The translations under genes were made by a program, and so were the position numbers. The notes under the pieces are model-generated. The model did not search any database. It saw only the letters and a list, made by a program, of their open reading frames with translations, and was not told where the DNA came from. From a virus (taxonomy: Duplodnaviria > Heunggongvirae > Uroviricota > Caudoviricetes): a stretch of 37,920 nucleotides of DNA. Each line of letters begins with the position of its first letter. Position 1 is the first letter of the stretch. Below are positions 3,095 through 35,264 of this stretch, piece after piece. The stretch lies in the IMG/VR virus record IMGVR_UViG_2737471826_000005. The stretch is one strand, 5' to 3'.

Positions 3095-4263
3095 TTTTTC
3101 TTCTCTCTTATTACTGTGGACGTGCTGCCGTCCGGTTTATAGATGGTCAGCATCCGGGTTTTGCCGATTTTTTTACCTTTCTTCGCCTTGCCCTGTGTGA
3201 TCGGCCCCCGTGCCACTTCCAGCTCTGTGGTGTAGCCGCTGTTACGGTCAAACGCATGGCGGGCAGTGGTTATGAGCCATGGCCCGGATAACTGCCCAAA
3301 ACCCACCAGTTCAATTTTGTTGCCTGCTGTCAGTTGAGGTGTTCCCGTCAGCGTCAGGGAGCCGTTCTGCTGGTATTCGTTATGTCTGGCCAGTGCTGAA
3401 TCCGCTTTAATCCGGGCACTGTCCGGGTCGCTGACGCGGCTGTTAACTTTAAGTGAGTCAGCGCTGGTAACCTTACCACCTTTGAGCTTTTTGTCGCTTT
3501 CACGGGTACCACCATCAGCTTCGTAGACGATCAGTTTTTTACTGCTGCTTTTCTGGTGTTTTACCTTTGCAGATTTATAGACCCGGTTGATGGTGTCACG
3601 CAGGGAAAAGCGGGCCACATCCTGCGGTTTTAACTGCCTGACCGGCTCCTGACTGCGCAGTGTGGCCAGATGAGAAAAAATCAGCTGGTCACTGACCACT
3701 TTCACTGCATAACCATACTCGCTGGCCAGCCGGCGCAGAAAACCCACGTCGGTTTCAGCATACTGGGTCACCCGGTCGATTCTGATGGACTCAATGCTGC
3801 CCACCAGTTTCAGCCGGTGCTTTCTGGCAATCCGCCCCGCAACAGCTGCCAGCGTGGTGTTCTCAAAACCACGACTGGTTTTAGTCCGCAGGGCACTGTT
3901 AACCGAGGTGGCCACCCCACGGATAGAAACAACGGAAGCGGGCGAACTCACTTCGATCTCGTCTATAGAGAACGTACCGCAGGACAGCAGCTTCTCGTCC
4001 TGATAGCCCATTTTCAGCGTCAGCGTGTCACCCTTGCCCGGATACCACTTATCCAGCCAGCGGCCATCGGTGTCGTCCAGCTCCACCTCAATGGTATCGG
4101 ACTCATTTTTGATGTTATCGCTCCAGGTCACACGGGTGACATAAGGCGCGATATCAGAGGTGATGTTTTTCTGCAGATACCACAGAGTGAACACCGGTGT
4201 CAGCACATCGCTGACGCCGGTTAACGCTGATGTGACTTGCGCAGTGCTGTTTATCTCAGCCAT
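3091..4263 (-). CDS. tail protein D-like (baseplate hub, P2 gpD / Mu gp44)
   Basis: 390-aa ORF after tail protein X; synteny. Confidence 0.8.
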   Translation of the reverse strand: MAEINSTAQVTSALTGVSDVLTPVFTLWYLQKNITSDIAPYVTRVTWSDNIKNESDTIEVELDDTDGRWLDKWYPGKGDTLTLKMGYQDEKLLSCGTFSIDEIEVSSPASVVSIRGVATSVNSALRTKTSRGFENTTLAAVAGRIARKHRLKLVGSIESIRIDRVTQYAETDVGFLRRLASEYGYAVKVVSDQLIFSHLATLRSQEPVRQLKPQDVARFSLRDTINRVYKSAKVKHQKSSSKKLIVYEADGGTRESDKKLKGGKVTSADSLKVNSRVSDPDSARIKADSALARHNEYQQNGSLTLTGTPQLTAGNKIELVGFGQLSGPWLITTARHAFDRNSGYTTELEVARGPITQGKAKKGKKIGKTRMLTIYKPDGSTSTVIREKKK

Positions 4264-4466
4264 GGGGCAATATCCTCTTCTGTACGGGCTTCTTCAGCCT
4301 CAATCACCGGGATCAGTAACAACAGCCCGGAGGGCAGCACCGGCGTGATGGCCACGTGCGGATTGGCGGCAATAATCCGGGGATAGCCCAGCGGGTCACC
4401 GTAGTACTGCCATGCCAGCGAATCCCAGCGCTCTCCGTCACGGGTAACATGTTCAAGAAACATCAC
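4251..4466 (-). CDS. phage tail protein X-like
   Basis: 71 aa; ...WDSLAWQYYGDP...IIAANP... resembles Phage_tail_X family. Confidence 0.7.
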   Translation of the reverse strand: MMFLEHVTRDGERWDSLAWQYYGDPLGYPRIIAANPHVAITPVLPSGLLLLIPVIEAEEARTEEDIAPWLR

Positions 4467-5347
4467 ACACTCCTCGTCAGTATTCTGGCGGCCATTGCAC
4501 TTAATCCCGGAGACATGCGGTTGAATGCTGTTCCGACGGCGTTAAGCTGCCCGGAAACGGTATCCAGAGCACCTGCAATATTTCTTTTGTCCACACCACT
4601 CAGCGCAGACTGTGCCTGCTGTACATACGTGGCTGCTTCGCTGGCTGTTCTGGCCAGACTGATGGCATCGGGCATGGATTCAGAGAGTGCGTTAAACGCC
4701 GGAACACTTTTCCCCAGAGCCCCGGAGATATTACCCAGTCCGCTCATCAGCCCCGGCACACGGGTCAGTGCGACAACGGGGTTATCCTTCATTTTCTGTG
4801 TCACCCGAACGGCGCTGATAGTGGTCTGGAGTACAGACTGCGCCTGTTTCGCATAGTTGACGCCGTTGCGGATGAACTGCGCCACCCCGGAAGGTGAAGG
4901 AATGGCACCGGAGACCGCCCCGACACCCGGGAGCTTCGTGCGTATTGCCGGTGGTTGCAGAGGATTTTTCGGGTCACCGGTGTATTCCCGGAGAGACACG
5001 GTGGCACTGACAGCCAGCACGTTGCCGGTACTGTCAGTCTGCTCGCTGGTTGCAGTCACATCGGTAATCACGAACCAGCCGCGATAGTCACCGTTGCCGA
5101 AGACCAGCGCCAGTGCCTGATGGGCTTTCATGGCTGTTCGCAGTCTCGCCAGCTCCACATCGGGTACACAATAATGCTGATGGAAAACCAGAGTTATCTG
5201 GATTTCGTCCAGCCTGTCGCCGACGAACTGCAGGCCAGGCTTACCCCCGATGCGGGCATGCTCCGCATAATCGACGCCGAACGTGGCCTCGAAGCCGTCC
5301 CAGTAGGTAATCAGCTCAAACTCAATATCACCCAGTACGGCAAACAT
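4463..5347 (-). CDS. tail protein, gpU-like N-domain with Ala/Ser/Gly-rich C-terminal extension
   Basis: 294 aa immediately downstream of tape measure; N-terminus MFAVLGDIEFELIT is gpU-like. Confidence 0.6.
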   Translation of the reverse strand: MFAVLGDIEFELITYWDGFEATFGVDYAEHARIGGKPGLQFVGDRLDEIQITLVFHQHYCVPDVELARLRTAMKAHQALALVFGNGDYRGWFVITDVTATSEQTDSTGNVLAVSATVSLREYTGDPKNPLQPPAIRTKLPGVGAVSGAIPSPSGVAQFIRNGVNYAKQAQSVLQTTISAVRVTQKMKDNPVVALTRVPGLMSGLGNISGALGKSVPAFNALSESMPDAISLARTASEAATYVQQAQSALSGVDKRNIAGALDTVSGQLNAVGTAFNRMSPGLSAMAARILTRSV

Positions 5348-8300
5348 CAGCGGTACTCCTTACGTTGTTTCTGAGCCAGCAGACGCTCCAGCATTTTTTC
5401 CAGCTCATGCAGACTCATATTCAGGGCACCAGTCAGTCCTGCAGGCGCTGTGGTTTCCCTGCCATTGAGGAAAAACTGAGGATTAAAGCTGACCTGGATA
5501 CCACCAGACGTTCCACCGCCGGTTGCAGCTGCACCACGGCCTGAATATCCGGCAGCCAGGATTTCAGGCGAGGGGATACGGGGAACATCCGGTGTCATCT
5601 CATTTGCCAGACGTTGCCCTGGTAAAATCGATGCCCGGGTGGAGAGCGGAATAACGGGCATGGAAGACAAACTATTGATTACGGCTCCGATCGCATTTTT
5701 AGCAGACGACATAAACCCATTGATATCGGGCAACGGCATACTGAAGCGAACACCTGAAGTGTTATCCCGTATTTCTGGCCCCTGAATGCTCACGGGCATT
5801 CTGGGGAGCAGTTCACTGGCCATTCGCTGCCCGGCCAGAGCTGCAAGCGGAGTGGTCCGCTGCAGGCCAATGGCGGCCCCCTGCGCGATATTGTCACCAA
5901 AGCCCATAAACACGCGGCTCGGCGAATGAATGCCCAGCTTTTCGCTGAACCAGCCACTGATGCTGTCACCCATTCCGGTTACACTGGATTTGAGCGACTC
6001 CCATTTGTTTTTGATACCGTTAATCAGACCGTCGACAAGATGGCCACCGAAGTCGGTGAACTTTGCCGGCAGATCAACACCAAGATATTTCAGCGCAGCT
6101 GCAAAGGCTTTATAGAGCAGACCTGCCGGCGACCAGTTAATCAGCAGCTTACCAGTTCCCGCGATACCGCCGTTAAAGGCTTCCTGAATGTCAGCCCAGC
6201 ACTGTTTAAACCAGCTACTGATGCTGTCACCCATTCCGGTTACACTGGATTTGAGCGACCCCCATTTGTTTTTGATACCGTTAATCAGACCGTCGATAAG
6301 ATGGCCACCGAAGTCGGTGAACTTTGCCGGCAGAGCAACGCCGAAATATTTCAGCGCAGCCGCAAAGGCTTTATAGAGCAGGCCTGCCGGCGACCAGTTA
6401 ATCAGCAACTTACCAATTCCCACAATGCCGCCGTTAAAGGCTTCCTGAATGTCAGCCCAGCGCTGTTTAAACCAGCTACTGATGCTGTCACCCATTCCGG
6501 TTACACTGGATTTGAGCGACCCCCATTTGCTTTTGATACCGTTAATCAGACCGTCGATAAGATGGCCACCGAAGTCGGTGAACTTTGCCGGCAGAGCAAC
6601 GCCGAAATATTTCAGCGCAGCCGCAAAGGCTTTATAGAGCAGGCCTGCCGGCGACCAGTTAATCAGCAACTTACCAATTCCCACAATGCCGCCGTTAAAG
6701 GCTTCCTGAATGTCAGCCCAGCGCTGTTTAAACCAACCACTGACAGCCCCCCAGTTGCGGTAGATAAGGTAAGCTGCTGTCGCGACAGCGGTGATAACGA
6801 GACCGATGGGATTCATCATCAGCGCTCGCCCAATCCAGAGAACGGCACGTGCAGCGCTCATAAAACCGCGAACGAGGCTGCCCGCCAGAACTTTGCTGAG
6901 TTTCAGTCCTCCGCTGGTCAGTCGGCTGAATCCAGTGACAAGCCAGCGTAATTTGCCACCTTCTCCGAGTGCGGTAGTCAGTCGATGCCAGTTGGTCCGG
7001 AGTAAAACAGTAGTTTTCCAGACGTTCACAAAGGGGGAAATAAGGAGATTCAGCCCCAGTTTGAGACCAATAGTCGCTATCTTAATCGCAAGGAGCGCAC
7101 TGATGAGCTTAAAAGCCCCACTGACAAATTGCGGGTGAGTCGCTACCCAGTGTTTTGTCCCCTGAATGAGTGGGAGCAGTTCCTGAGTCAGAGAAATAAA
7201 AGATGGAGCTAATTGATCGCCCAGCGTAATTGCCAGATCGCGACTGCTGACCATAAGTGTTTTAGTGGCTTCAAGGGGAGATTTCAGCCGCTGATCATAA
7301 GCACTGGCAAGCAAATCGTTATCCGCAGCCCTGAGAGCACCGGCACGGATCTCTCGATATCTGTCCATGTTGGCCAGCATCGGGCGGATAAATGCCATGA
7401 CCTGCATATCCGCGAACATATCGCCCAGACCAAAGTTTTTCGCCAGAGCCTGAAGTGCCTCATCTCTTGCCGTATCATTCTTTATTTTCATGGCTGATTT
7501 GAAGCCGGCCAGCGCTTCGGGGCTTTTGGCATTGAGGTAACGTTCTATAACACTCAACATCCCTTCAATCGGAGAGATCCCCGCAGCTTTATAACTCGCA
7601 ATAGATCCCTGCAAATCAATACCCAGATCAGCAAACTGTTTCTGAGTATCGCGGGCAAAAATTTTGGTAAGAAAGTTTTTAAAATTATTGGCTGCTTCGT
7701 CGGTGGAACCTGCACCGATTTTTGCTATCTGGAGACTGGCCCCGATTTCAGCAACAGCCTCTTTTCCACTGGCAAGACCCGCCATCATTGGGGCCAGGGA
7801 CTGCATCCACTTGACCTGATCCGGGATTTCAAATGACCCCTGGTCACCGGCATAAGCCATAATATTCTGAACGGCACCAAAATCTCTGGCCGCACCTTTC
7901 AGGGAGTTTTGCCAGACTGCGGCCACTTTTGCCCAGTCCTGAGCAGACGTGCGTGTTGCCGTTGCCGCGCGGGCAATATCCGGCATCAGAAAACCGATAT
8001 CTGACACATTATCAATATTGTCGCTGATGAGTGAACCCACCGCCTCCTGCAGCTCATCCTGATACTGATTGTATTTAAGCGCCCAGCCTTTTATCTGTCC
8101 GGCAAGTGCATCCCGCGTTTTATTGTCATATTTTGCGGTGATCGACATATCAATCATTTTGTCCTGAAAAGACATGGACTGCTGAACGGCAGGGGAAACC
8201 GTATGATAAACAGTCTGTGCCATGCCATACGCTTCAATCCCCTGACCATACAGCGCCATGCGGTTAGCTTTCAGCGCATCACTGGTAGCGGATGCCGCTG

Positions 8301-8559
8301 ACAGACGGCGCTGCTGGCGCTCAATTTGCTCCATGGTGCGGCTTACCCGCAGCAGCTCGCTGTTGAGATGCTGCATCCGGGAAGAACCCAGTTGACCATA
8401 ACGTTCTGTTGCACGGGTTAAAGCGTTCTGACGTTCCTGCAGGCGGCGTGAGGTATCGCTCAGGGAATCAAGCGCACGGCGGGTACCGCTCATTGCAGAA
8501 CGGAATGTGCTGCCAATCATCCCGCCGATAACAACGCCGACTGAAAACTGTCCCGACAT
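5347..8559 (-). CDS. tail tape measure protein
   Basis: 1070-aa ORF, GGAGG RBS, downstream of chaperone pair, internal 87-aa tandem repeats. Confidence 0.9.
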   Translation of the reverse strand: MSGQFSVGVVIGGMIGSTFRSAMSGTRRALDSLSDTSRRLQERQNALTRATERYGQLGSSRMQHLNSELLRVSRTMEQIERQQRRLSAASATSDALKANRMALYGQGIEAYGMAQTVYHTVSPAVQQSMSFQDKMIDMSITAKYDNKTRDALAGQIKGWALKYNQYQDELQEAVGSLISDNIDNVSDIGFLMPDIARAATATRTSAQDWAKVAAVWQNSLKGAARDFGAVQNIMAYAGDQGSFEIPDQVKWMQSLAPMMAGLASGKEAVAEIGASLQIAKIGAGSTDEAANNFKNFLTKIFARDTQKQFADLGIDLQGSIASYKAAGISPIEGMLSVIERYLNAKSPEALAGFKSAMKIKNDTARDEALQALAKNFGLGDMFADMQVMAFIRPMLANMDRYREIRAGALRAADNDLLASAYDQRLKSPLEATKTLMVSSRDLAITLGDQLAPSFISLTQELLPLIQGTKHWVATHPQFVSGAFKLISALLAIKIATIGLKLGLNLLISPFVNVWKTTVLLRTNWHRLTTALGEGGKLRWLVTGFSRLTSGGLKLSKVLAGSLVRGFMSAARAVLWIGRALMMNPIGLVITAVATAAYLIYRNWGAVSGWFKQRWADIQEAFNGGIVGIGKLLINWSPAGLLYKAFAAALKYFGVALPAKFTDFGGHLIDGLINGIKSKWGSLKSSVTGMGDSISSWFKQRWADIQEAFNGGIVGIGKLLINWSPAGLLYKAFAAALKYFGVALPAKFTDFGGHLIDGLINGIKNKWGSLKSSVTGMGDSISSWFKQCWADIQEAFNGGIAGTGKLLINWSPAGLLYKAFAAALKYLGVDLPAKFTDFGGHLVDGLINGIKNKWESLKSSVTGMGDSISGWFSEKLGIHSPSRVFMGFGDNIAQGAAIGLQRTTPLAALAGQRMASELLPRMPVSIQGPEIRDNTSGVRFSMPLPDINGFMSSAKNAIGAVINSLSSMPVIPLSTRASILPGQRLANEMTPDVPRIPSPEILAAGYSGRGAAATGGGTSGGIQVSFNPQFFLNGRETTAPAGLTGALNMSLHELEKMLERLLAQKQRKEYR
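5932..6735. repeat. three tandem copies of a 261-bp unit inside the tape measure gene
   Basis: Unit starts at 5950, 6211, 6472 (period 261); copies 2 and 3 nearly identical, copy 1 slightly diverged; degenerate fourth start at 6733. Confidence 0.9.
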
Positions 8560-8634
8560 AGTGGTTAACCTCCGGGGAAGGTGAAAAGACGTGAGGGGAT
8601 AACGCAGAACAGCCGCTACTGGCGGCTGTCTGTA

Positions 8635-8892
8635 CTATGATTTGTCGCCGTACTCGCTTTTGATTTGCTCTTCAGCCTGCTCCAGCCACATCTCCAGATC
8701 GTCAGTATCGAGGGCATCAATCTCCCCCGGCTGAAACCGGAACCATCTCGCCAGCAGCCCCTGCGCCTGCGTCAGCGCCCTGGTTGCTCTCACCCATCCC
8801 CGTGATGAGCTGAAATCGTTTCTGTAACTGCAGGTAATCAGCCAGATCCATATTGTCGAGATCTTCCGGGAGAAGACCAGTACTGCGGGCAA
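8635..8892 (-). CDS. C-terminal extension frame of tail assembly chaperone (E'-like), reached by programmed frameshift
   Basis: Overlapping ORF in +1 frame relative to 8717..9052, no ATG of its own, ends just before tape measure gene. Confidence 0.55.
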   Translation of the reverse strand: MPAVLVFSRKISTIWIWLITCSYRNDFSSSRGWVRATRALTQAQGLLARWFRFQPGEIDALDTDDLEMWLEQAEEQIKSEYGDKS

Positions 8893-9052
8893 TCAGCGGT
8901 TCGTCCCAGTCTGCCGGGTTTTTGCTGATTTTGCGCACCTGCTTCAGGTCTTTTACCGTCAGGCGTTTCAGTTCAACCAGCTCAATTCTGGTGCCTGCAG
9001 CAGTGGTGAAGGGATAAGACAATTTAAAAGTATCGGATGGGGTCTGTGACAT
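8717..9052 (-). CDS. tail assembly chaperone (P2 gpE / Mu gp41-like), short form
   Basis: 111-aa ORF immediately upstream of tape measure. Confidence 0.7.
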   Translation of the reverse strand: MSQTPSDTFKLSYPFTTAAGTRIELVELKRLTVKDLKQVRKISKNPADWDEPLIARSTGLLPEDLDNMDLADYLQLQKRFQLITGMGESNQGADAGAGAAGEMVPVSAGGD

Positions 9053-9149
9053 GATTGTGCTCCTGTGTAAGTTCAGGGCAGTATGTCGGGAGAAGCGCGT
9101 GACGGATATTAAAGGAGATTAAGAAGAAGGGGCCGGAGCCCCTGTGATG

Positions 9150-9431
9150 TCAGCAAGTGCGAAACCCCTTGCAGTTACGCAGGAAAGCGATGAGAAGCGT
9201 CTTTCCCTCAGATTTGCCGATGCCGGAGAACCAGTGGTCGGGAGGCTCCCATGCTTCAATCAAATCCGCCAGTTTGCGGGCCTTTGAACGTGTGCAGTCA
9301 ATCGGGTCATTGGTTTTACGGGTATTAAAAAGGGTTTCCACCCCCGGAATATCAAGGAGGGTAAACCACGTACCATTTGACATGCCCAGTGCCGCACATC
9401 GTCCTCCTTTATCCGTCAGTTCAACACTCAC
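9150..9431 (-). CDS. hypothetical protein (extra gene between tube and chaperone)
   Basis: 93-aa ORF starting 3 nt after tube stop; no homolog recognised. Confidence 0.45.
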   Translation of the reverse strand: MSVELTDKGGRCAALGMSNGTWFTLLDIPGVETLFNTRKTNDPIDCTRSKARKLADLIEAWEPPDHWFSGIGKSEGKTLLIAFLRNCKGFRTC

Positions 9432-9433
9432 CG

Positions 9434-9955
9434 TCAGCCCCCGATATTGATACGGTAGTCAGTCAGTTGATCAACACCGCCGACCCGGAAGATGTTGGCC
9501 AGATAGTCCAGTTGCAGCAGCTCTTCACCATCCAGTACCTGTCTGATATACGTGCAGGTGAAGCTACTGGAGAACTCGGCGTTCTCGTGCTGTTTGAACG
9601 TCCCCAGCGGGTTCTTCTTGAACATAATCGTCAGGAAGGTGACCAGCGGGATTTCGTCAATCAGCCCCTGCGAGCTGTAGCGCTGGACGCTGGAACGACA
9701 CTGCAGTGCCAGCGACCTGTACGGGTTCGCGGCAGACAGCATCGCATCGCGGTAAAAGCTGTTCCATTTGATTTCGCCTTCCAGCTTGTCAAAACCAGCC
9801 GGGAGTTCCACCTTACCCACCATCCCCAGCGCCTTGTGTTCCTGCATAATCATGGAGACATCGGGGAGTTTGACTTCCTCAGCCCGTCCCAGCAGGTTAG
9901 TACCATCCAGATAGATGTTGGCATTCGTGATGCGGTTTATCTCAATCTTTGACAT
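9434..9955 (-). CDS. tail tube protein
   Basis: 173 aa, ATGA overlap with sheath stop. Confidence 0.85.
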   Translation of the reverse strand: MSKIEINRITNANIYLDGTNLLGRAEEVKLPDVSMIMQEHKALGMVGKVELPAGFDKLEGEIKWNSFYRDAMLSAANPYRSLALQCRSSVQRYSSQGLIDEIPLVTFLTIMFKKNPLGTFKQHENAEFSSSFTCTYIRQVLDGEELLQLDYLANIFRVGGVDQLTDYRINIGG

Positions 9956-11382
9956 CAGTTGCCCCCTTTCAGGGTTAACAGGTATTCCGAGGTGATCTCA
10001 GTCTCAAACGTCAGTCGCTCCAGCGGCGGTGGTGGCGTATATTTGTAGCTCAGCAACAGGTGCCCGGCGGCCAGCTCCGTCTCCGGATTGCGGGCCGGAT
10101 CAAACCAGCAACGGAAGCCCAGTACCGCACCATCACCAGTCATTTTGCGACCGTAGGCGTTGACCGACTCCGTCAGTGCATCAATCAGCGCCTGAGTAAT
10201 CGGCATGTCGATGTACTGCTGGCTGAAATAACGAATGGACTCGTTGATCACATCACCGGTGCGGCGAACGTTCTCAAAGTTACGCATATGGGTGACCGTT
10301 GGCCATGCTGCCGTCCGGTTACCCCACAGACGAAGGCCGCTGCCGTAACTGCTGAATACCGTGGTGATCCCCTGTTCGTTAAGCAGGTTCACCTCACTCT
10401 GCGGGTCATCAATCATCGCGGACAGCTGGCGCTCCACGCCGGTGATCCCCAGAATCTCCTGATTGGAGGATGACCACCAGTAGCCCTTGTCCAGATCGAC
10501 TCTGGCACGCAGACCTGCTGCACGCTGGCTGAGCGGCTCCAGACGCTCTGTGTTTGTCACCGGGTCATATACCTTCACATGCGGATAGCACAGACGGACG
10601 CGGTCGGAGCTGGTATTGAAGTTGATGGTGCCTTCCGGGCCACGACCTGCCAGAGCCTGTGCAAAGGTGGTACCGACAGGCGCATCAATGTAGGTTACCG
10701 CGCCCAGCTTCTCTGCCATGGCGATAAGCTCAACTGCGACACTCTTCTGGGTGCAGAACACCGGCGCAATCAGAATTTTGGCGAAATAGCCGTACAGGTT
10801 GAAGCTGTCGTTAAGCAGCTTCATGCCGGTTCGGTTTCCGGCGCTGTTCACCCCGCCGATGATGTCCGCCGCAGTCACCTTCGACGGGTCCGCGTACTCA
10901 TAGCTCACCTTCACGCTGCCACCGGCCTCAATAGCCTTGCCCAGGTTCGTGAGCACACCCGCCTGCGCATCAACACGGTAGTCCGTGTTCGCCGTGTGGG
11001 TGGTGCTGCCTTCACTGTTTTTCACCACCACATTAGCGACAACCGGATGCGCCAGTCTGGCCTGCCCTGTCGATTTGTCAAAGGTAACCACCTCATCCTC
11101 GATCGCCGTTTTATGTTTCGCCGGGTCGAGGACGTTAATGACCAGAACGGTGCCTGCACCATGGTCATAAATCGCATCCAGCGCCTGCGGAATGGTAAAG
11201 CCGGTGAACTGGCTGCCAAATGCCGCTGCGTCTTTCTCAGACAGGCACTGTACCAGCGTATTGACATCCCCCATCGGGGCGGTACCAATCAGGCCAATAA
11301 CGGCAGATTTCACCGTTTTAACCGGGCGGGCACCGTTTTCCACCTCAATGGTTTCGGGACCATGCAGATAGTTAGCTGCCAT
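9955..11382 (-). CDS. tail sheath protein
   Basis: 475-aa ORF preceding tube gene. Confidence 0.9.
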   Translation of the reverse strand: MAANYLHGPETIEVENGARPVKTVKSAVIGLIGTAPMGDVNTLVQCLSEKDAAAFGSQFTGFTIPQALDAIYDHGAGTVLVINVLDPAKHKTAIEDEVVTFDKSTGQARLAHPVVANVVVKNSEGSTTHTANTDYRVDAQAGVLTNLGKAIEAGGSVKVSYEYADPSKVTAADIIGGVNSAGNRTGMKLLNDSFNLYGYFAKILIAPVFCTQKSVAVELIAMAEKLGAVTYIDAPVGTTFAQALAGRGPEGTINFNTSSDRVRLCYPHVKVYDPVTNTERLEPLSQRAAGLRARVDLDKGYWWSSSNQEILGITGVERQLSAMIDDPQSEVNLLNEQGITTVFSSYGSGLRLWGNRTAAWPTVTHMRNFENVRRTGDVINESIRYFSQQYIDMPITQALIDALTESVNAYGRKMTGDGAVLGFRCWFDPARNPETELAAGHLLLSYKYTPPPPLERLTFETEITSEYLLTLKGGN

Positions 11383-26823: not shown

Positions 26824-28593
26824 ATGAATGCTGCCCTGACTGAACGACTGGTTTATGTCGCCCGCGCGGCACGTGACGCGGGGCATGGTAAACGCGGCGC
26901 AGTATACGACGCTGCCTGTGCTGAACTTGGCATGTCCCGCGCCACTCTGCTGCGCAGGCTGAAGGAGGTATCTGTGACTGATAAACGCAAAAAACGCGCC
27001 GATGCCGGGCGCAGCGCCCTGACCCGCGACGAAGCCGCGCTGATATCTGCCACACTGCGTGAGGCCACCCGCAAGAACGGTAAGCGTCTCTATTCCATCG
27101 CGGATGCAGTGGAAACCCTGCGGGCTAACGGCTTTATATCCGCAGGCAGAACAGATGAAACCACCGGTGAGTTTTTCCCGTTGTCCGAAGATGCCATCAG
27201 CCGAGCCCTGCGTAACTATGGCCTGCACCCGGAACAACTGGATGCCCCTGCGCCGCATACCGAAGTGGCCAGTCTGCATCCCAATCATGTCTGGCAGATT
27301 GACGCCTCACTCTGCACGCTTTACTACCTGAGCAATGGACATAAAGGGCTGCAGGTGATGGACAGCGCGAAGTTCTACAAGAACAAGCCCGCTAACCTTG
27401 CCCGTATCGCCAGTGACCGCGTGTGGAGTTACGAGATTACCGACCATGCCAGCGGCTGGATTTACGTTGAGTATGTGACGGGCGCGGAATCAGGTGAGAA
27501 CCTGTGTTCTGTGCTTATCAACGCCATGCAGGAGCGTGGCGGCGCAGACGTGCTGCACGGTGTGCCGAAAATACTCTATCTCGACCCCGGCTCGGCAAAC
27601 ACCGCGGGTATGACGAAAAACATGTGCCGCTCACTGGGCATCGACCTGATAGCGCACAAGCCGCATAACGCCCGCGCCACCGGACAGGTGGAAAAGGCGC
27701 GGGACATTATCGAACGCAAGCTGGAGCCGGGTCTGAAGTTCCGGCCGGTTCACAGTCTGGAAGAACTCAACGCGCTGGCCGCGAAATGGCGCAGCCACTT
27801 TAACGCCACGGCTGTTCACAGCCGCCACGGTAAAACCCGCACGGATATCTGGCTGAAGATTACTGCTGAGCAGCTGAAAAAAGCGCCTTCCGTTGAGGTA
27901 TGTCGTGAACTGGCTGTGGCGGCACCAGAACTCCGCAAAGTCACGCCAAAACTTCGTGTCTCGTTCCGGGGCACTGAATTTGACGTATCAACGGTACCGG
28001 GCGTACTGGTTGGTGAAAAACTGATGATTACCCGTAACCCGTGGCGCAGCGATGTGGCACAGGTGGTTCTGACCGGTGAGGACGGCCACGAGACGTTCTT
28101 CCTGGTCGAAGAGGTCAGAAAGAACGAGTTTGGCTTTGCTGAAGGCGCGGCGGTATTTGGCGAAAGTTACAAAGCCCTGCCGGAAACCCCGGCGCAGATG
28201 GCGGCAAAAGAAACCGAAGCGCTGGTCACCGGTACAGACAACGCCGCAGATGCAGCTGCCGCACGCAAGGCGAAGGCGCTGCCGTTCGGCGGGCGGCTTG
28301 ACCCGTATAAACATATCGACGACACCACACTTCCGGCCTATATGCCGAAGCGTGGTCAGGCCTCTGACGTACGCGGGCCGCGCACTGAACAACGTCCCAT
28401 GACTTATGTGGAGGCCGCGAAAGCCCTGCGCGATAAGTTCAGCGCCAACGGCTTTACCTGGACGCCGGAACATTACCGCCAGTTAACGGCACAGTATCCG
28501 GACGGCGTACCGGAAGCCGCACTGGATGAAGTCATGGCCACGCTGACCACGCCGGCCCGCAGCAGCGTTATCAGTATTGTTAACGGCAACTGA
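26824..28593 (+). CDS. DDE transposase, Mu A-like
   Basis: 589 aa; HPNHVWQIDASL and YLDPGS integrase-core-like motifs; followed by B-like ATPase. Confidence 0.85.
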   Translation: MNAALTERLVYVARAARDAGHGKRGAVYDAACAELGMSRATLLRRLKEVSVTDKRKKRADAGRSALTRDEAALISATLREATRKNGKRLYSIADAVETLRANGFISAGRTDETTGEFFPLSEDAISRALRNYGLHPEQLDAPAPHTEVASLHPNHVWQIDASLCTLYYLSNGHKGLQVMDSAKFYKNKPANLARIASDRVWSYEITDHASGWIYVEYVTGAESGENLCSVLINAMQERGGADVLHGVPKILYLDPGSANTAGMTKNMCRSLGIDLIAHKPHNARATGQVEKARDIIERKLEPGLKFRPVHSLEELNALAAKWRSHFNATAVHSRHGKTRTDIWLKITAEQLKKAPSVEVCRELAVAAPELRKVTPKLRVSFRGTEFDVSTVPGVLVGEKLMITRNPWRSDVAQVVLTGEDGHETFFLVEEVRKNEFGFAEGAAVFGESYKALPETPAQMAAKETEALVTGTDNAADAAAARKAKALPFGGRLDPYKHIDDTTLPAYMPKRGQASDVRGPRTEQRPMTYVEAAKALRDKFSANGFTWTPEHYRQLTAQYPDGVPEAALDEVMATLTTPARSSVISIVNGN

Positions 28594-34496: not shown

Positions 34497-35264
34497 ATGT
34501 CTGATCATCTGGGCTTTCGTTCGTCACTGCTGCAAGCGAGCTTTAACTACGAAAGGATGCAGGCGGGCGGTTTTACCTGGGCGATGTTGCCGATCCTGAA
34601 AAAGATTTATAAGGACGACAAACCGGGCCTAAGCGCGGCGATGAAAGATAACCTCGAATTTATTAATACCCACCCGAATCTGGTCGGATTCCTGATGGGG
34701 TTATTAATTTCGATGGAAGAAAAAGGAGAAAACCGCGACACCATTAAAGGCCTCAAAGTGGCACTGTTTGGCCCAATCGCCGGGATTGGCGATGCGATTT
34801 TCTGGTTTACCTTATTGCCGATTATGGCGGGAATTTGCTCATCATTTGCCAGCCAGGGAAACTTGCTGGGGCCGATTCTATTTTTCGCCGTTTACCTGCT
34901 TATCTTCTTCCTGCGCGTCGGCTGGACCCACGTCGGTTATTCAGTCGGCGTGAAGGCGATCGATAAAGTGCGAGAGAACTCGCAGATGATTGCTCGTTCG
35001 GCAACCATCCTCGGGATCACGGTAATCGGCGGGCTGATCGCTTCGTATGTGCATATTAACGTGGTGACATCGTTTGCCATCGACAGTACCCACAGCGTCG
35101 CGCTGCAGCAGGATTTCTTCGATAAAGTCTTCCCGAATATTTTACCGATGGCCTACACCCTGCTGATGTATTACTTCCTGCGGGTGAAAAAAGCGCATCC
35201 GGTGCTGTTAATCGGCGTGACGTTTGTTCTTTCTATTGTTTGTTCTGCATTCGGCATTTTGTAA
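34497..35264 (+). CDS. agaD: PTS N-acetylgalactosamine-specific IID component, 5'-truncated/altered by prophage insertion
   Basis: Body of protein matches AgaD as I recall it, but N-terminus MSDHLGFRSS replaces native MGSEISKKDITRLGFRSS. Confidence 0.8.
   Translation: MSDHLGFRSSLLQASFNYERMQAGGFTWAMLPILKKIYKDDKPGLSAAMKDNLEFINTHPNLVGFLMGLLISMEEKGENRDTIKGLKVALFGPIAGIGDAIFWFTLLPIMAGICSSFASQGNLLGPILFFAVYLLIFFLRVGWTHVGYSVGVKAIDKVRENSQMIARSATILGITVIGGLIASYVHINVVTSFAIDSTHSVALQQDFFDKVFPNILPMAYTLLMYYFLRVKKAHPVLLIGVTFVLSIVCSAFGIL

Follow-up and report, generated by a model that had tools for sequence, protein, structure and literature searches.

The window analyzed here, a stretch of DNA of 37,920 nucleotides (nt) held in IMG/VR as the caudoviricete virus record IMGVR_UViG_2737471826_000005, contains an Escherichia coli prophage whose tail length tape measure gene carries a tandem array of three 261-bp units. 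Taking all of the evidence together, this array is quite probably an in-frame variable number tandem repeat (VNTR) in the ruler gene of a functional BcepMu-like E. coli myophage, in which recurrent exchange changes the number of units and each unit would alter the tail by a step of about 13 nm. Intact alleles with one, two, and three units are present in complete E. coli genomes, and chimeric units mark the unequal exchange between them. A sequence-only reading of the window had described the array as recent, probably unstable, and liable to vary between isolates, and these alleles bear it out.

Within positions 4000–10000, Tandem Repeats Finder reported a single array (5948..6743, minus strand) with a period of 261, 3.0 copies, 96% matches, 0% indels, and a score of 1466; as called, it spans 3.05 × 261 bp and includes ~11 nt ahead of the first unit, as the gene reads, that are partly homologous. 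An ungapped repeat finder placed the three copies at 5948, 6209, and 6470, with a spacing of 261/261, and a gapless alignment of all three set their register at 5950, 6211, and 6472, which are the starts that the sequence-only reading had given for three head-to-tail units. That reading did not name a strand; the gene lies on the minus strand, and in gene order the near-identical pair comes first (6472, then 6211) and the divergent unit (5950) last. Unit 1 (6472..6732, minus strand) is of the first type, here called alpha, and carries a private G at unit site 203 (Ser). Unit 2 (6211..6471, minus strand) is of the alpha type over its full length and differs from unit 1 at that site only (Asn/Ser; 1 of 261 positions), close to the single base that had been noticed from the letters; with a synonymous divergence (dS) of 0 against unit 1, it is the recent extra copy. 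Unit 3 (5950..6210, minus strand) is of the last type, here called omega, and differs from the other two at 15 and 16 positions. At a length of 261 bp and a DNA identity of 93–99.6% between copies, the repeat is far beyond chance.

The only long open reading frame (ORF) through this region is an uninterrupted one of 1070 codons on the minus strand (5347..8559). The array keeps to its frame, as had been claimed, with 261 nt equal to 87 codons and the three units at codons 610–696, 697–783, and 784–870. The identification of the gene as a tape measure gene also stands. Pfam PF10145 (PhageMin_Tail) matches amino acids (aa) 159–340 of the product (E 1.3e-20; 74.6 bits against a cut-off of 33.2), PHROG family phrog_28, "tail length tape measure protein," matches with an E-value of 2e-135, as do more than 15 other PHROG families of the same name, and RefSeq names the identical protein, WP_001529030.1, "phage tail tape measure protein." Membership of curated families is joined by a conserved gene position, between the chaperone, tube, and sheath genes on one side and GpU, X, and D on the other.

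The possibility that the tape measure holds further, older and degenerate copies of the unit was considered and rejected: a sensitive BLASTP search with the unit found none in the protein reduced to one unit. Downstream of the array, the distant 821-aa alleles (L009, L012) are without a 71-aa segment that is present in the window (5602–5817, minus strand, aa ~915–986). This segment is flanked by a repeated motif, GQR[ML]A[SN]E...P..P...PEI, which suggests that it may be an older, now degenerate duplication or insertion. On the opposite strand, a 341-codon ORF (5926–6951, plus strand) crosses the array, and shorter ones (~62 aa) reappear with each unit; all of them are almost certainly by-products of stop-free repeated sequence and no genes.

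Copy-number alleles and exchange of units

The tape measure gene was present in 636 of 5426 complete E. coli genomes (about 12%), with JJ1887 and an O25b:H4-ST131 isolate among the carriers. Copy-number classes were taken from these complete, mostly long-read genomes. Of the 636 positive genomes, 60 were sampled at even intervals; in these, the commonest allele had two units (a span of 2952 nt; 38 genomes, with JJ1887 in this class), three units (3213 nt) were found in 14 genomes, one unit (2691 nt) in 2, and partial or distant alleles in 6. The window itself is matched at 99% identity or more across the full 3213 nt in 89 genomes; at least 27 of these, independent complete E. coli genomes, are 100% identical and hold the array base for base. 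Ten alleles were compared with one another: three units are present in the window, SCU-105, AHB1, AVS0973, and AVS0744, two in JJ1887, PKF4, and MS1657, and one in TUM14759 and MLI114. All ten are uninterrupted ORFs of 1070, 983, or 896 codons, and the protein database contains the same length classes, with the largest cluster at 983 aa.

No four-unit allele was found in the 5426 complete E. coli genomes, in which a synthetic four-unit query gave no single-piece match, and among the best 120 homologues no protein was longer than 1084 aa. An apparent seven-unit array in an IMG/VR record (L019, UViG_2740892433_000005) was rejected as a misassembly, in which 3.4 and 4 units are joined across N and the pre-array flank reappears in mid-array; positions 6600–6830 of this record hint at more than three units, but are unreliable.

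Some hosts carry more than one allele. NZ_CP027534.1 (AR_0081) and NZ_CP013831.1 (CD306) have two related prophages at different loci, one with three units and the other with two. Several genomes have 8–15 matching places, which suggests two to three prophage copies per genome. Such polylysogens would allow recombination between prophage arrays.

Traces of exchange can be followed at 16 diagnostic sites that separate the alpha from the omega unit. TUM14759, with one unit, has no flank differences from the two-unit JJ1887 in 2430 nt, and its unit matches unit 1 of JJ1887 at sites 9–10 and, from site 90 onward, unit 2 of JJ1887, private states included; judged by these sites, the TUM14759 allele is a single-crossover deletion product. 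The single units of MLI114 and of two IMG/VR records (L029, L047) are alpha at the first seven diagnostic sites and omega at the other nine. The middle units of the three-unit alleles AVS0973, AVS0744, L018, and AHB1 are omega-5′/alpha-3′ chimeras with differing crossover points, and in AVS0744 the last unit is also partly converted. Omega-5′/alpha-3′ middle units and alpha-5′/omega-3′ single units are the reciprocal products expected from unequal exchange. In the window, SCU-105, and L017, the middle unit is all alpha.

The sequences around the array link these structures to one another. The 5′ flanks of MLI114 (one unit), MS1657 (two units), and AVS0973 and AVS0744 (three units) are within 5–19 nt of each other, alleles with one, two, and three units share flank haplotypes, and at least three different three-unit structures occur, on two flank haplotypes. 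Because the chimera structures differ while the flanks are shared, gain and loss of units appear to have recurred. The array thus has what defines a VNTR, that is, differing unit numbers on the same flank haplotype and block-chimeric units that are distinct from the ancestral state. The two haplotype groups differ by ~60 substitutions in ~200 nt just upstream of the array (6826–7027, gene nt 1533–1734, aa 511–578), a patch where the second group is similar to the distant L012-type allele. Two deep lineages had been considered as the reason for the haplotypes and were rejected, as the ~70 flank differences concentrate in gene nt 1533–1734, which is a recombination mosaic.

The order of events can be polarized with ~45 distant single-unit relatives as outgroups, in which alpha and omega states are interleaved along the unit, with 19–30 private differences per unit. 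Because the outgroup units interleave both states, alpha and omega are independently diverged descendants of one ancestral unit, with ~8–9 and ~7 derived changes, respectively. Single-unit alleles of the close clade were considered as the ancestral form, given that the MLI114 protein resembles the distant alleles, and were rejected: the outgroup units are interleaved, and the single units of the clade consist of two contiguous blocks. Within the E. coli clade, single units of the block-chimeric kind are therefore secondary losses. Alpha and omega units are 15–20 nt apart, with a dS of 0.13–0.17 and a ratio of nonsynonymous to synonymous divergence (dN/dS) of 0.21–0.36. These values, and the dS of 0 between units 1 and 2 of the window, show an old first duplication and a recent third copy. 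The description of the array as a recent triplication is therefore right for the third copy, but not for the array as a single event. In SCU-105, both alpha copies share the same substitution (site 56), a concerted change of the sort that conversion, or contraction and then re-expansion, would produce.

In the history that emerges from comparing the sequences, the wider family has one 87-codon unit, and an old tandem duplication gave rise to a two-unit array, whose copies then diverged into the alpha (first) and omega (last) units. In the E. coli clade, homologous exchange between misaligned units, whether by unequal crossing-over, gene conversion, or slipped replication, repeatedly adds or removes a unit; as the unit is 261 (3 × 87) nt long, the reading frame is kept every time. 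The state of the window is alpha-alpha-omega, with a very young extra alpha copy.

An assembly artefact, in which the three-unit array is an expansion of a gene that in reality has two units, had been named by the sequence-only reading as a finding that would overturn it. Arrays of this family do break assemblies, as in the 100-N gap within the array of Escherichia phage PhiKM (L001 12853–12952) and in the join across N in L019. They also mislead annotation: RefSeq/PGAP splits or truncates the genes of AVS0973 (L005), MS1657 (L008), and AHB1 (L011) and marks them as "incomplete; partial in the middle of a contig" pseudogenes, although these three alleles are intact, which looks like an annotation artefact caused by the repeat. 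The identical 3213-nt gene in the complete genomes mentioned above comes, however, from different laboratories, hosts, and countries. There are three structurally different three-unit alleles with informative differences between their units, and the three units of the window differ mutually, so they are no simple reiteration of one unit. Moreover, the identical three-unit protein WP_001529030.1 is encoded by prophages with four different host neighbours at the tail-fibre end, namely barA in 2016C-3878 (USA), a disrupted yqhA beside yghA in EC11 (cow dung, China), yccA/tRNA-Ser in M-17 (Belarus), and a disrupted phoX-like gene in GF43 (chicken meat, Switzerland). In the window, the early-gene (Mor) end abuts an agaD-like phosphotransferase system (PTS) IID gene (34497–35264) at ~34507/34508, followed by agaI-like and rsmI genes; this phage-host junction is present in none of the 5426 complete E. 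coli genomes. At least five insertion sites for one allele exclude an artefact of assembly, and we regard an expanded two-unit gene as extremely improbable. They also imply repeated transposition, and very probably infection, by a phage with three units.

The same sites bear on whether the prophage is a decaying remnant, in which changes in copy number would be neutral debris in an unused gene. Many E. coli prophages are defective, which lends this idea some initial plausibility. However, all ten alleles are intact, and dN/dS in their flanks is 0.20–0.28 between alleles (0.45 for the window against JJ1887, a pair with only 12 differences), which indicates purifying selection. The window seems to have a full complement of genes for head, tail, lysis, transposase, and regulators, the same allele occupies its several insertion sites in unrelated isolates, and PhiKM, which belongs to the group, is a phage isolate. 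We therefore consider a decaying remnant very improbable.

Predicted consequence for tail length

As a tape measure, the protein would fill the lumen of the tail tube in an extended helical form, and its end would halt the polymerization of tube and sheath. At ~0.15 nm per residue, each 87-aa unit probably lengthens the tail by ~13 nm, and the tails predicted for the 896-, 983-, and 1070-aa alleles are ~134, 147, and 160 nm long. Tube rings in contractile tails rise by ~4 nm, from which one unit is expected to add about three tube and sheath rings. The value of ~13 nm per unit had already been put forward by the sequence-only reading and, applied by analogy to this phage, agrees with published ratios. 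In a deletion series of TP901-1, removal of 347 aa shortened the tail from 118 nm (wild type) to 65 nm, or 0.153 nm/aa (PMC5099701), and a rule of 0.15 nm/aa has been applied to E. coli prophages (PMC9928086). In the transposable myophage KS10, a tape measure of 811 aa accompanies a tail of ~140 nm, or 0.17 nm/aa (PMC2628397). According to a survey, in-frame changes in the length of the tape measure alter tail length in proportion in lambda, T4, and TP901-1 (cited in PMC13585406), and the tail length of the myovirus T4 tracks the size of its tape measure (Abuladze, 1994, cited in PMC13585406).

The unit could instead lie outside the portion of the protein that sets length, as a functional part involved in membrane insertion or in the DNA channel, or as a folded-back or processed part, in which case extra copies would alter infection or nothing at all. 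Both old copies are under purifying selection (dN/dS 0.2–0.36), as would fit such a role, and some regions of the TP901-1 tape measure serve infection and not length (PMC5099701). Against it, in-frame deletions and duplications over most of the protein scaled tail length in lambda, T4, and TP901-1, including deletions in a hydrophobic region of the TP901-1 protein. The unit is predicted to be helical, with low confidence, and distant relatives tolerate duplications of the same region with other boundaries (L044, L089, and the protein P0001), which fits a spacer better than a dosage-sensitive module. On balance, we judge that the unit is unlikely to lie outside the length-setting portion.

Several observations nevertheless weigh against an in-frame VNTR in a pure length ruler, formed by simple unequal exchange. 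The C-terminal half of unit 3 continues into a widely conserved GIHSPS region, and it is this half and that region combined (aa ~829–950) that are matched by many otherwise unrelated PHROG tape-measure families. The array begins only 10 residues past a hydrophobic segment, one of two that were found in a Kyte-Doolittle scan (aa 580–599, 6763..6822, minus strand, window 19, threshold ≥1.6; the other at aa 478–508, 7036..7128, minus strand). The unit may for these reasons be a functional module and not a pure spacer. An AlphaFold2 single-sequence model of aa 590–890 is ~90% helix, but of low confidence, with a mean predicted local distance difference test (pLDDT) score of 42.8, and would back an extended helical ruler only weakly. 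As to the mechanism, an all-alpha middle unit made by one unequal crossover would have to have its breakpoint within ~20 nt at the unit boundary; a route in two steps, either through a chimera that then underwent gene conversion or through contraction with later re-expansion, is equally likely, and so is slipped replication. Finally, the class frequencies given above come from a sample and not from a full census, and the array of PhiKM, the only record of an isolated phage, is interrupted by its gap. With these points taken into account, a length-setting VNTR remains the explanation that we favor.

Length changes of other kinds are found in this tape-measure family. L044 has a 564-nt (188-aa) tandem duplication with ~97% nucleotide identity (5508–6673), and L089 a two-copy duplication of 705 nt (235 aa) with ~90% identity (5499–6801); both were found with a direct-repeat finder and an offset scan, as their periods exceed the 500-nt limit of Tandem Repeats Finder. 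Among E. coli proteins, P0001 has a 101-aa duplication (EGGKLRW...GTGKLL), and there are a 12-aa duplication in P0089 and a 68-aa deletion elsewhere in P0106, between LGD microhomologies. From these sequences, the central to C-terminal region of the tape measure seems generally to tolerate changes in length.

A further and more speculative idea, to which we attach little weight, is that the array acts as a contingency locus for virion geometry, with frequent, reversible gain and loss of units maintaining a standing mix of tail lengths in each lysogen population. Features of the host envelope, such as the depth of O-antigen or capsule or the width of the periplasm, would then select copy number by E. 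coli lineage. The recurrent changes in copy number, the intact and mobile classes, and the two- and three-unit prophages side by side in polylysogens are compatible with it. If it were true, tail length would be a rapidly tunable host-range trait in a contractile-tailed phage.

Prophage and gene neighbourhood

The tape measure gene is embedded in a tail operon of the P2 type. Upstream in gene order, all on the minus strand, are genes for the contractile tail sheath protein (9955..11382; Pfam PF04984 and PF17482), for the tail tube protein of the FII type, the stacking of which is limited by the tape measure (9434..9955; Pfam PF04985, E 2.9e-53), and for a GpE-like tail assembly chaperone (8717..9052; Pfam PF10109 Phage_TAC_7, E 5.5e-21, and RefSeq annotation at homologous positions in L007 and L012). 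The chaperone gene is overlapped by a GpE′-type frame (8635..8793, minus strand), which RefSeq calls "GpE family phage tail protein" in relatives. This E/E′ overlap (8635–9052, minus strand) is the usual frameshift arrangement; no obvious P2-type slippery heptamer was seen in it, and a frameshift site was not identified there. Directly downstream of the tape measure gene is that of a GpU-like tail protein (4463..5347, minus strand; Pfam PF06995, E 7.4e-39), and the order continues with X, D, V, W, J, and I.

Elsewhere on the minus strand are genes for the head, the portal, the terminase, and lysis. The early region diverges from these and encodes, on the plus strand, an rve-type transposase (26824–28593) and an AAA+ B-like protein, and the window also encodes a Dam-type methylase and a helix-turn-helix (HTH) repressor. 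Host genes (agaD-like, agaI-like, and rsmI) begin at ~34508. The closest phage record is PhiKM (PQ738613), which is classified as Bcepmuvirus. Because PhiKM has the same gene order, the element is a BcepMu-like transposable E. coli prophage with a P2-type contractile tail. Beyond the left edge of the window, which begins inside the prophage, a gene of the Gin-like recombinase family adjoins tail-fibre and fibre-assembly genes in related loci (L013–L016), and both the orientations of the fibre genes and the C-termini of the fibres differ between genomes. From its sequence, this fibre region, which is outside of the window, looks like an invertible host-range switch of the Mu G-segment type.

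Comparison with known systems

The length of the tail is among the basic design parameters of tailed phages, and the tape-measure rule rests on a handful of engineered mutants, mostly of non-contractile phages. The prophages described here provide a natural allelic series of 896, 983, and 1070 aa, partly on identical flanks, in a contractile-tailed phage. Such a series could be used without engineering for the ruler rule in whole-ring steps, for the cost or benefit of tail length in infection, and for the rate of change of the array. The array also defeats short-read assembly and automated annotation, as in the gaps of PhiKM and L019 and the false RefSeq pseudogenes, so that database values for tape-measure length in this group call for caution.

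BcepMu-like phages (Bcepmuvirus) combine transposition of the Mu type with a tail module of the P2 type. The element in the window shares with them the order sheath, tube, chaperone E/E′, tape measure, U, X, D, V, W, J, I, and fibre, as well as the genes for transposase, B-like ATPase, Gam, GemA, and Mor. Literature searches turned up no report of a polymorphic repeat in BcepMu-like tape measures, and nothing on the tape measure of the present prophage.

Both the mechanism and the expected consequence are of a known kind, and no new mechanism is involved. Katsura and Hendrix reportedly obtained length mutants of lambda gpH in 1984, and Pedersen is said to have done so for the tape measure protein (TMP) of TP901-1 in 2000. 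Length mutants of the TP901-1 TMP have also been described by Mahony (2016; PMC5099701). As in the mutants of lambda gpH, T4 gp29, and the TP901-1 TMP, the change seen here is an in-frame internal duplication or deletion in the ruler, for which a proportional change of the tail of ~0.15 nm per residue would be expected. Those mutants are laboratory products, engineered or selected, with measured tails, whereas the one-, two-, and three-unit series is natural and segregates among near-identical prophages.

Repeats within tape measures have also been described. Some tape measures contain variable numbers of 11-residue units with spaced aromatic residues, the duplication history of which can be reconstructed (Belcaid, Bergeron, and Poisson, 2011; PMC3271669), and the repeats of the TP901-1 tape measure also change in number (PMC5099701). 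A survey from 2026 found that tandem repeats contribute to variation in tape-measure length mainly in siphoviruses, and that myovirus tape measures are typically without them (PMC13585406). The array in the window resembles the 11-residue type in that tandem units of a tape measure change in number by duplication and loss. On the other hand, its unit of 87 aa is no multiple of 11, and the aromatic residues of the unit (at 1, 5, 12, 26, 33, 36, 42, 43, 51, 54, 70, and 87) are irregular, with neither an 11- nor an 18-residue period. It also differs in that its near-identical copies are open to homologous recombination, and in that it belongs to a contractile-tailed phage.

Long in-frame VNTRs in genes for bacterial surface proteins, such as the streptococcal alpha C protein and staphylococcal adhesins, expand and contract by unequal recombination. 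The tape-measure array is like them in that its unit is hundreds of nt long and a multiple of three, its copies are near-identical, chimeras mark the crossovers, and the number of units varies by isolate. In contrast to these systems, the gene that varies here encodes the assembly ruler of a virus, so that the expected phenotype is the geometry of the virion and not the size of an antigen.

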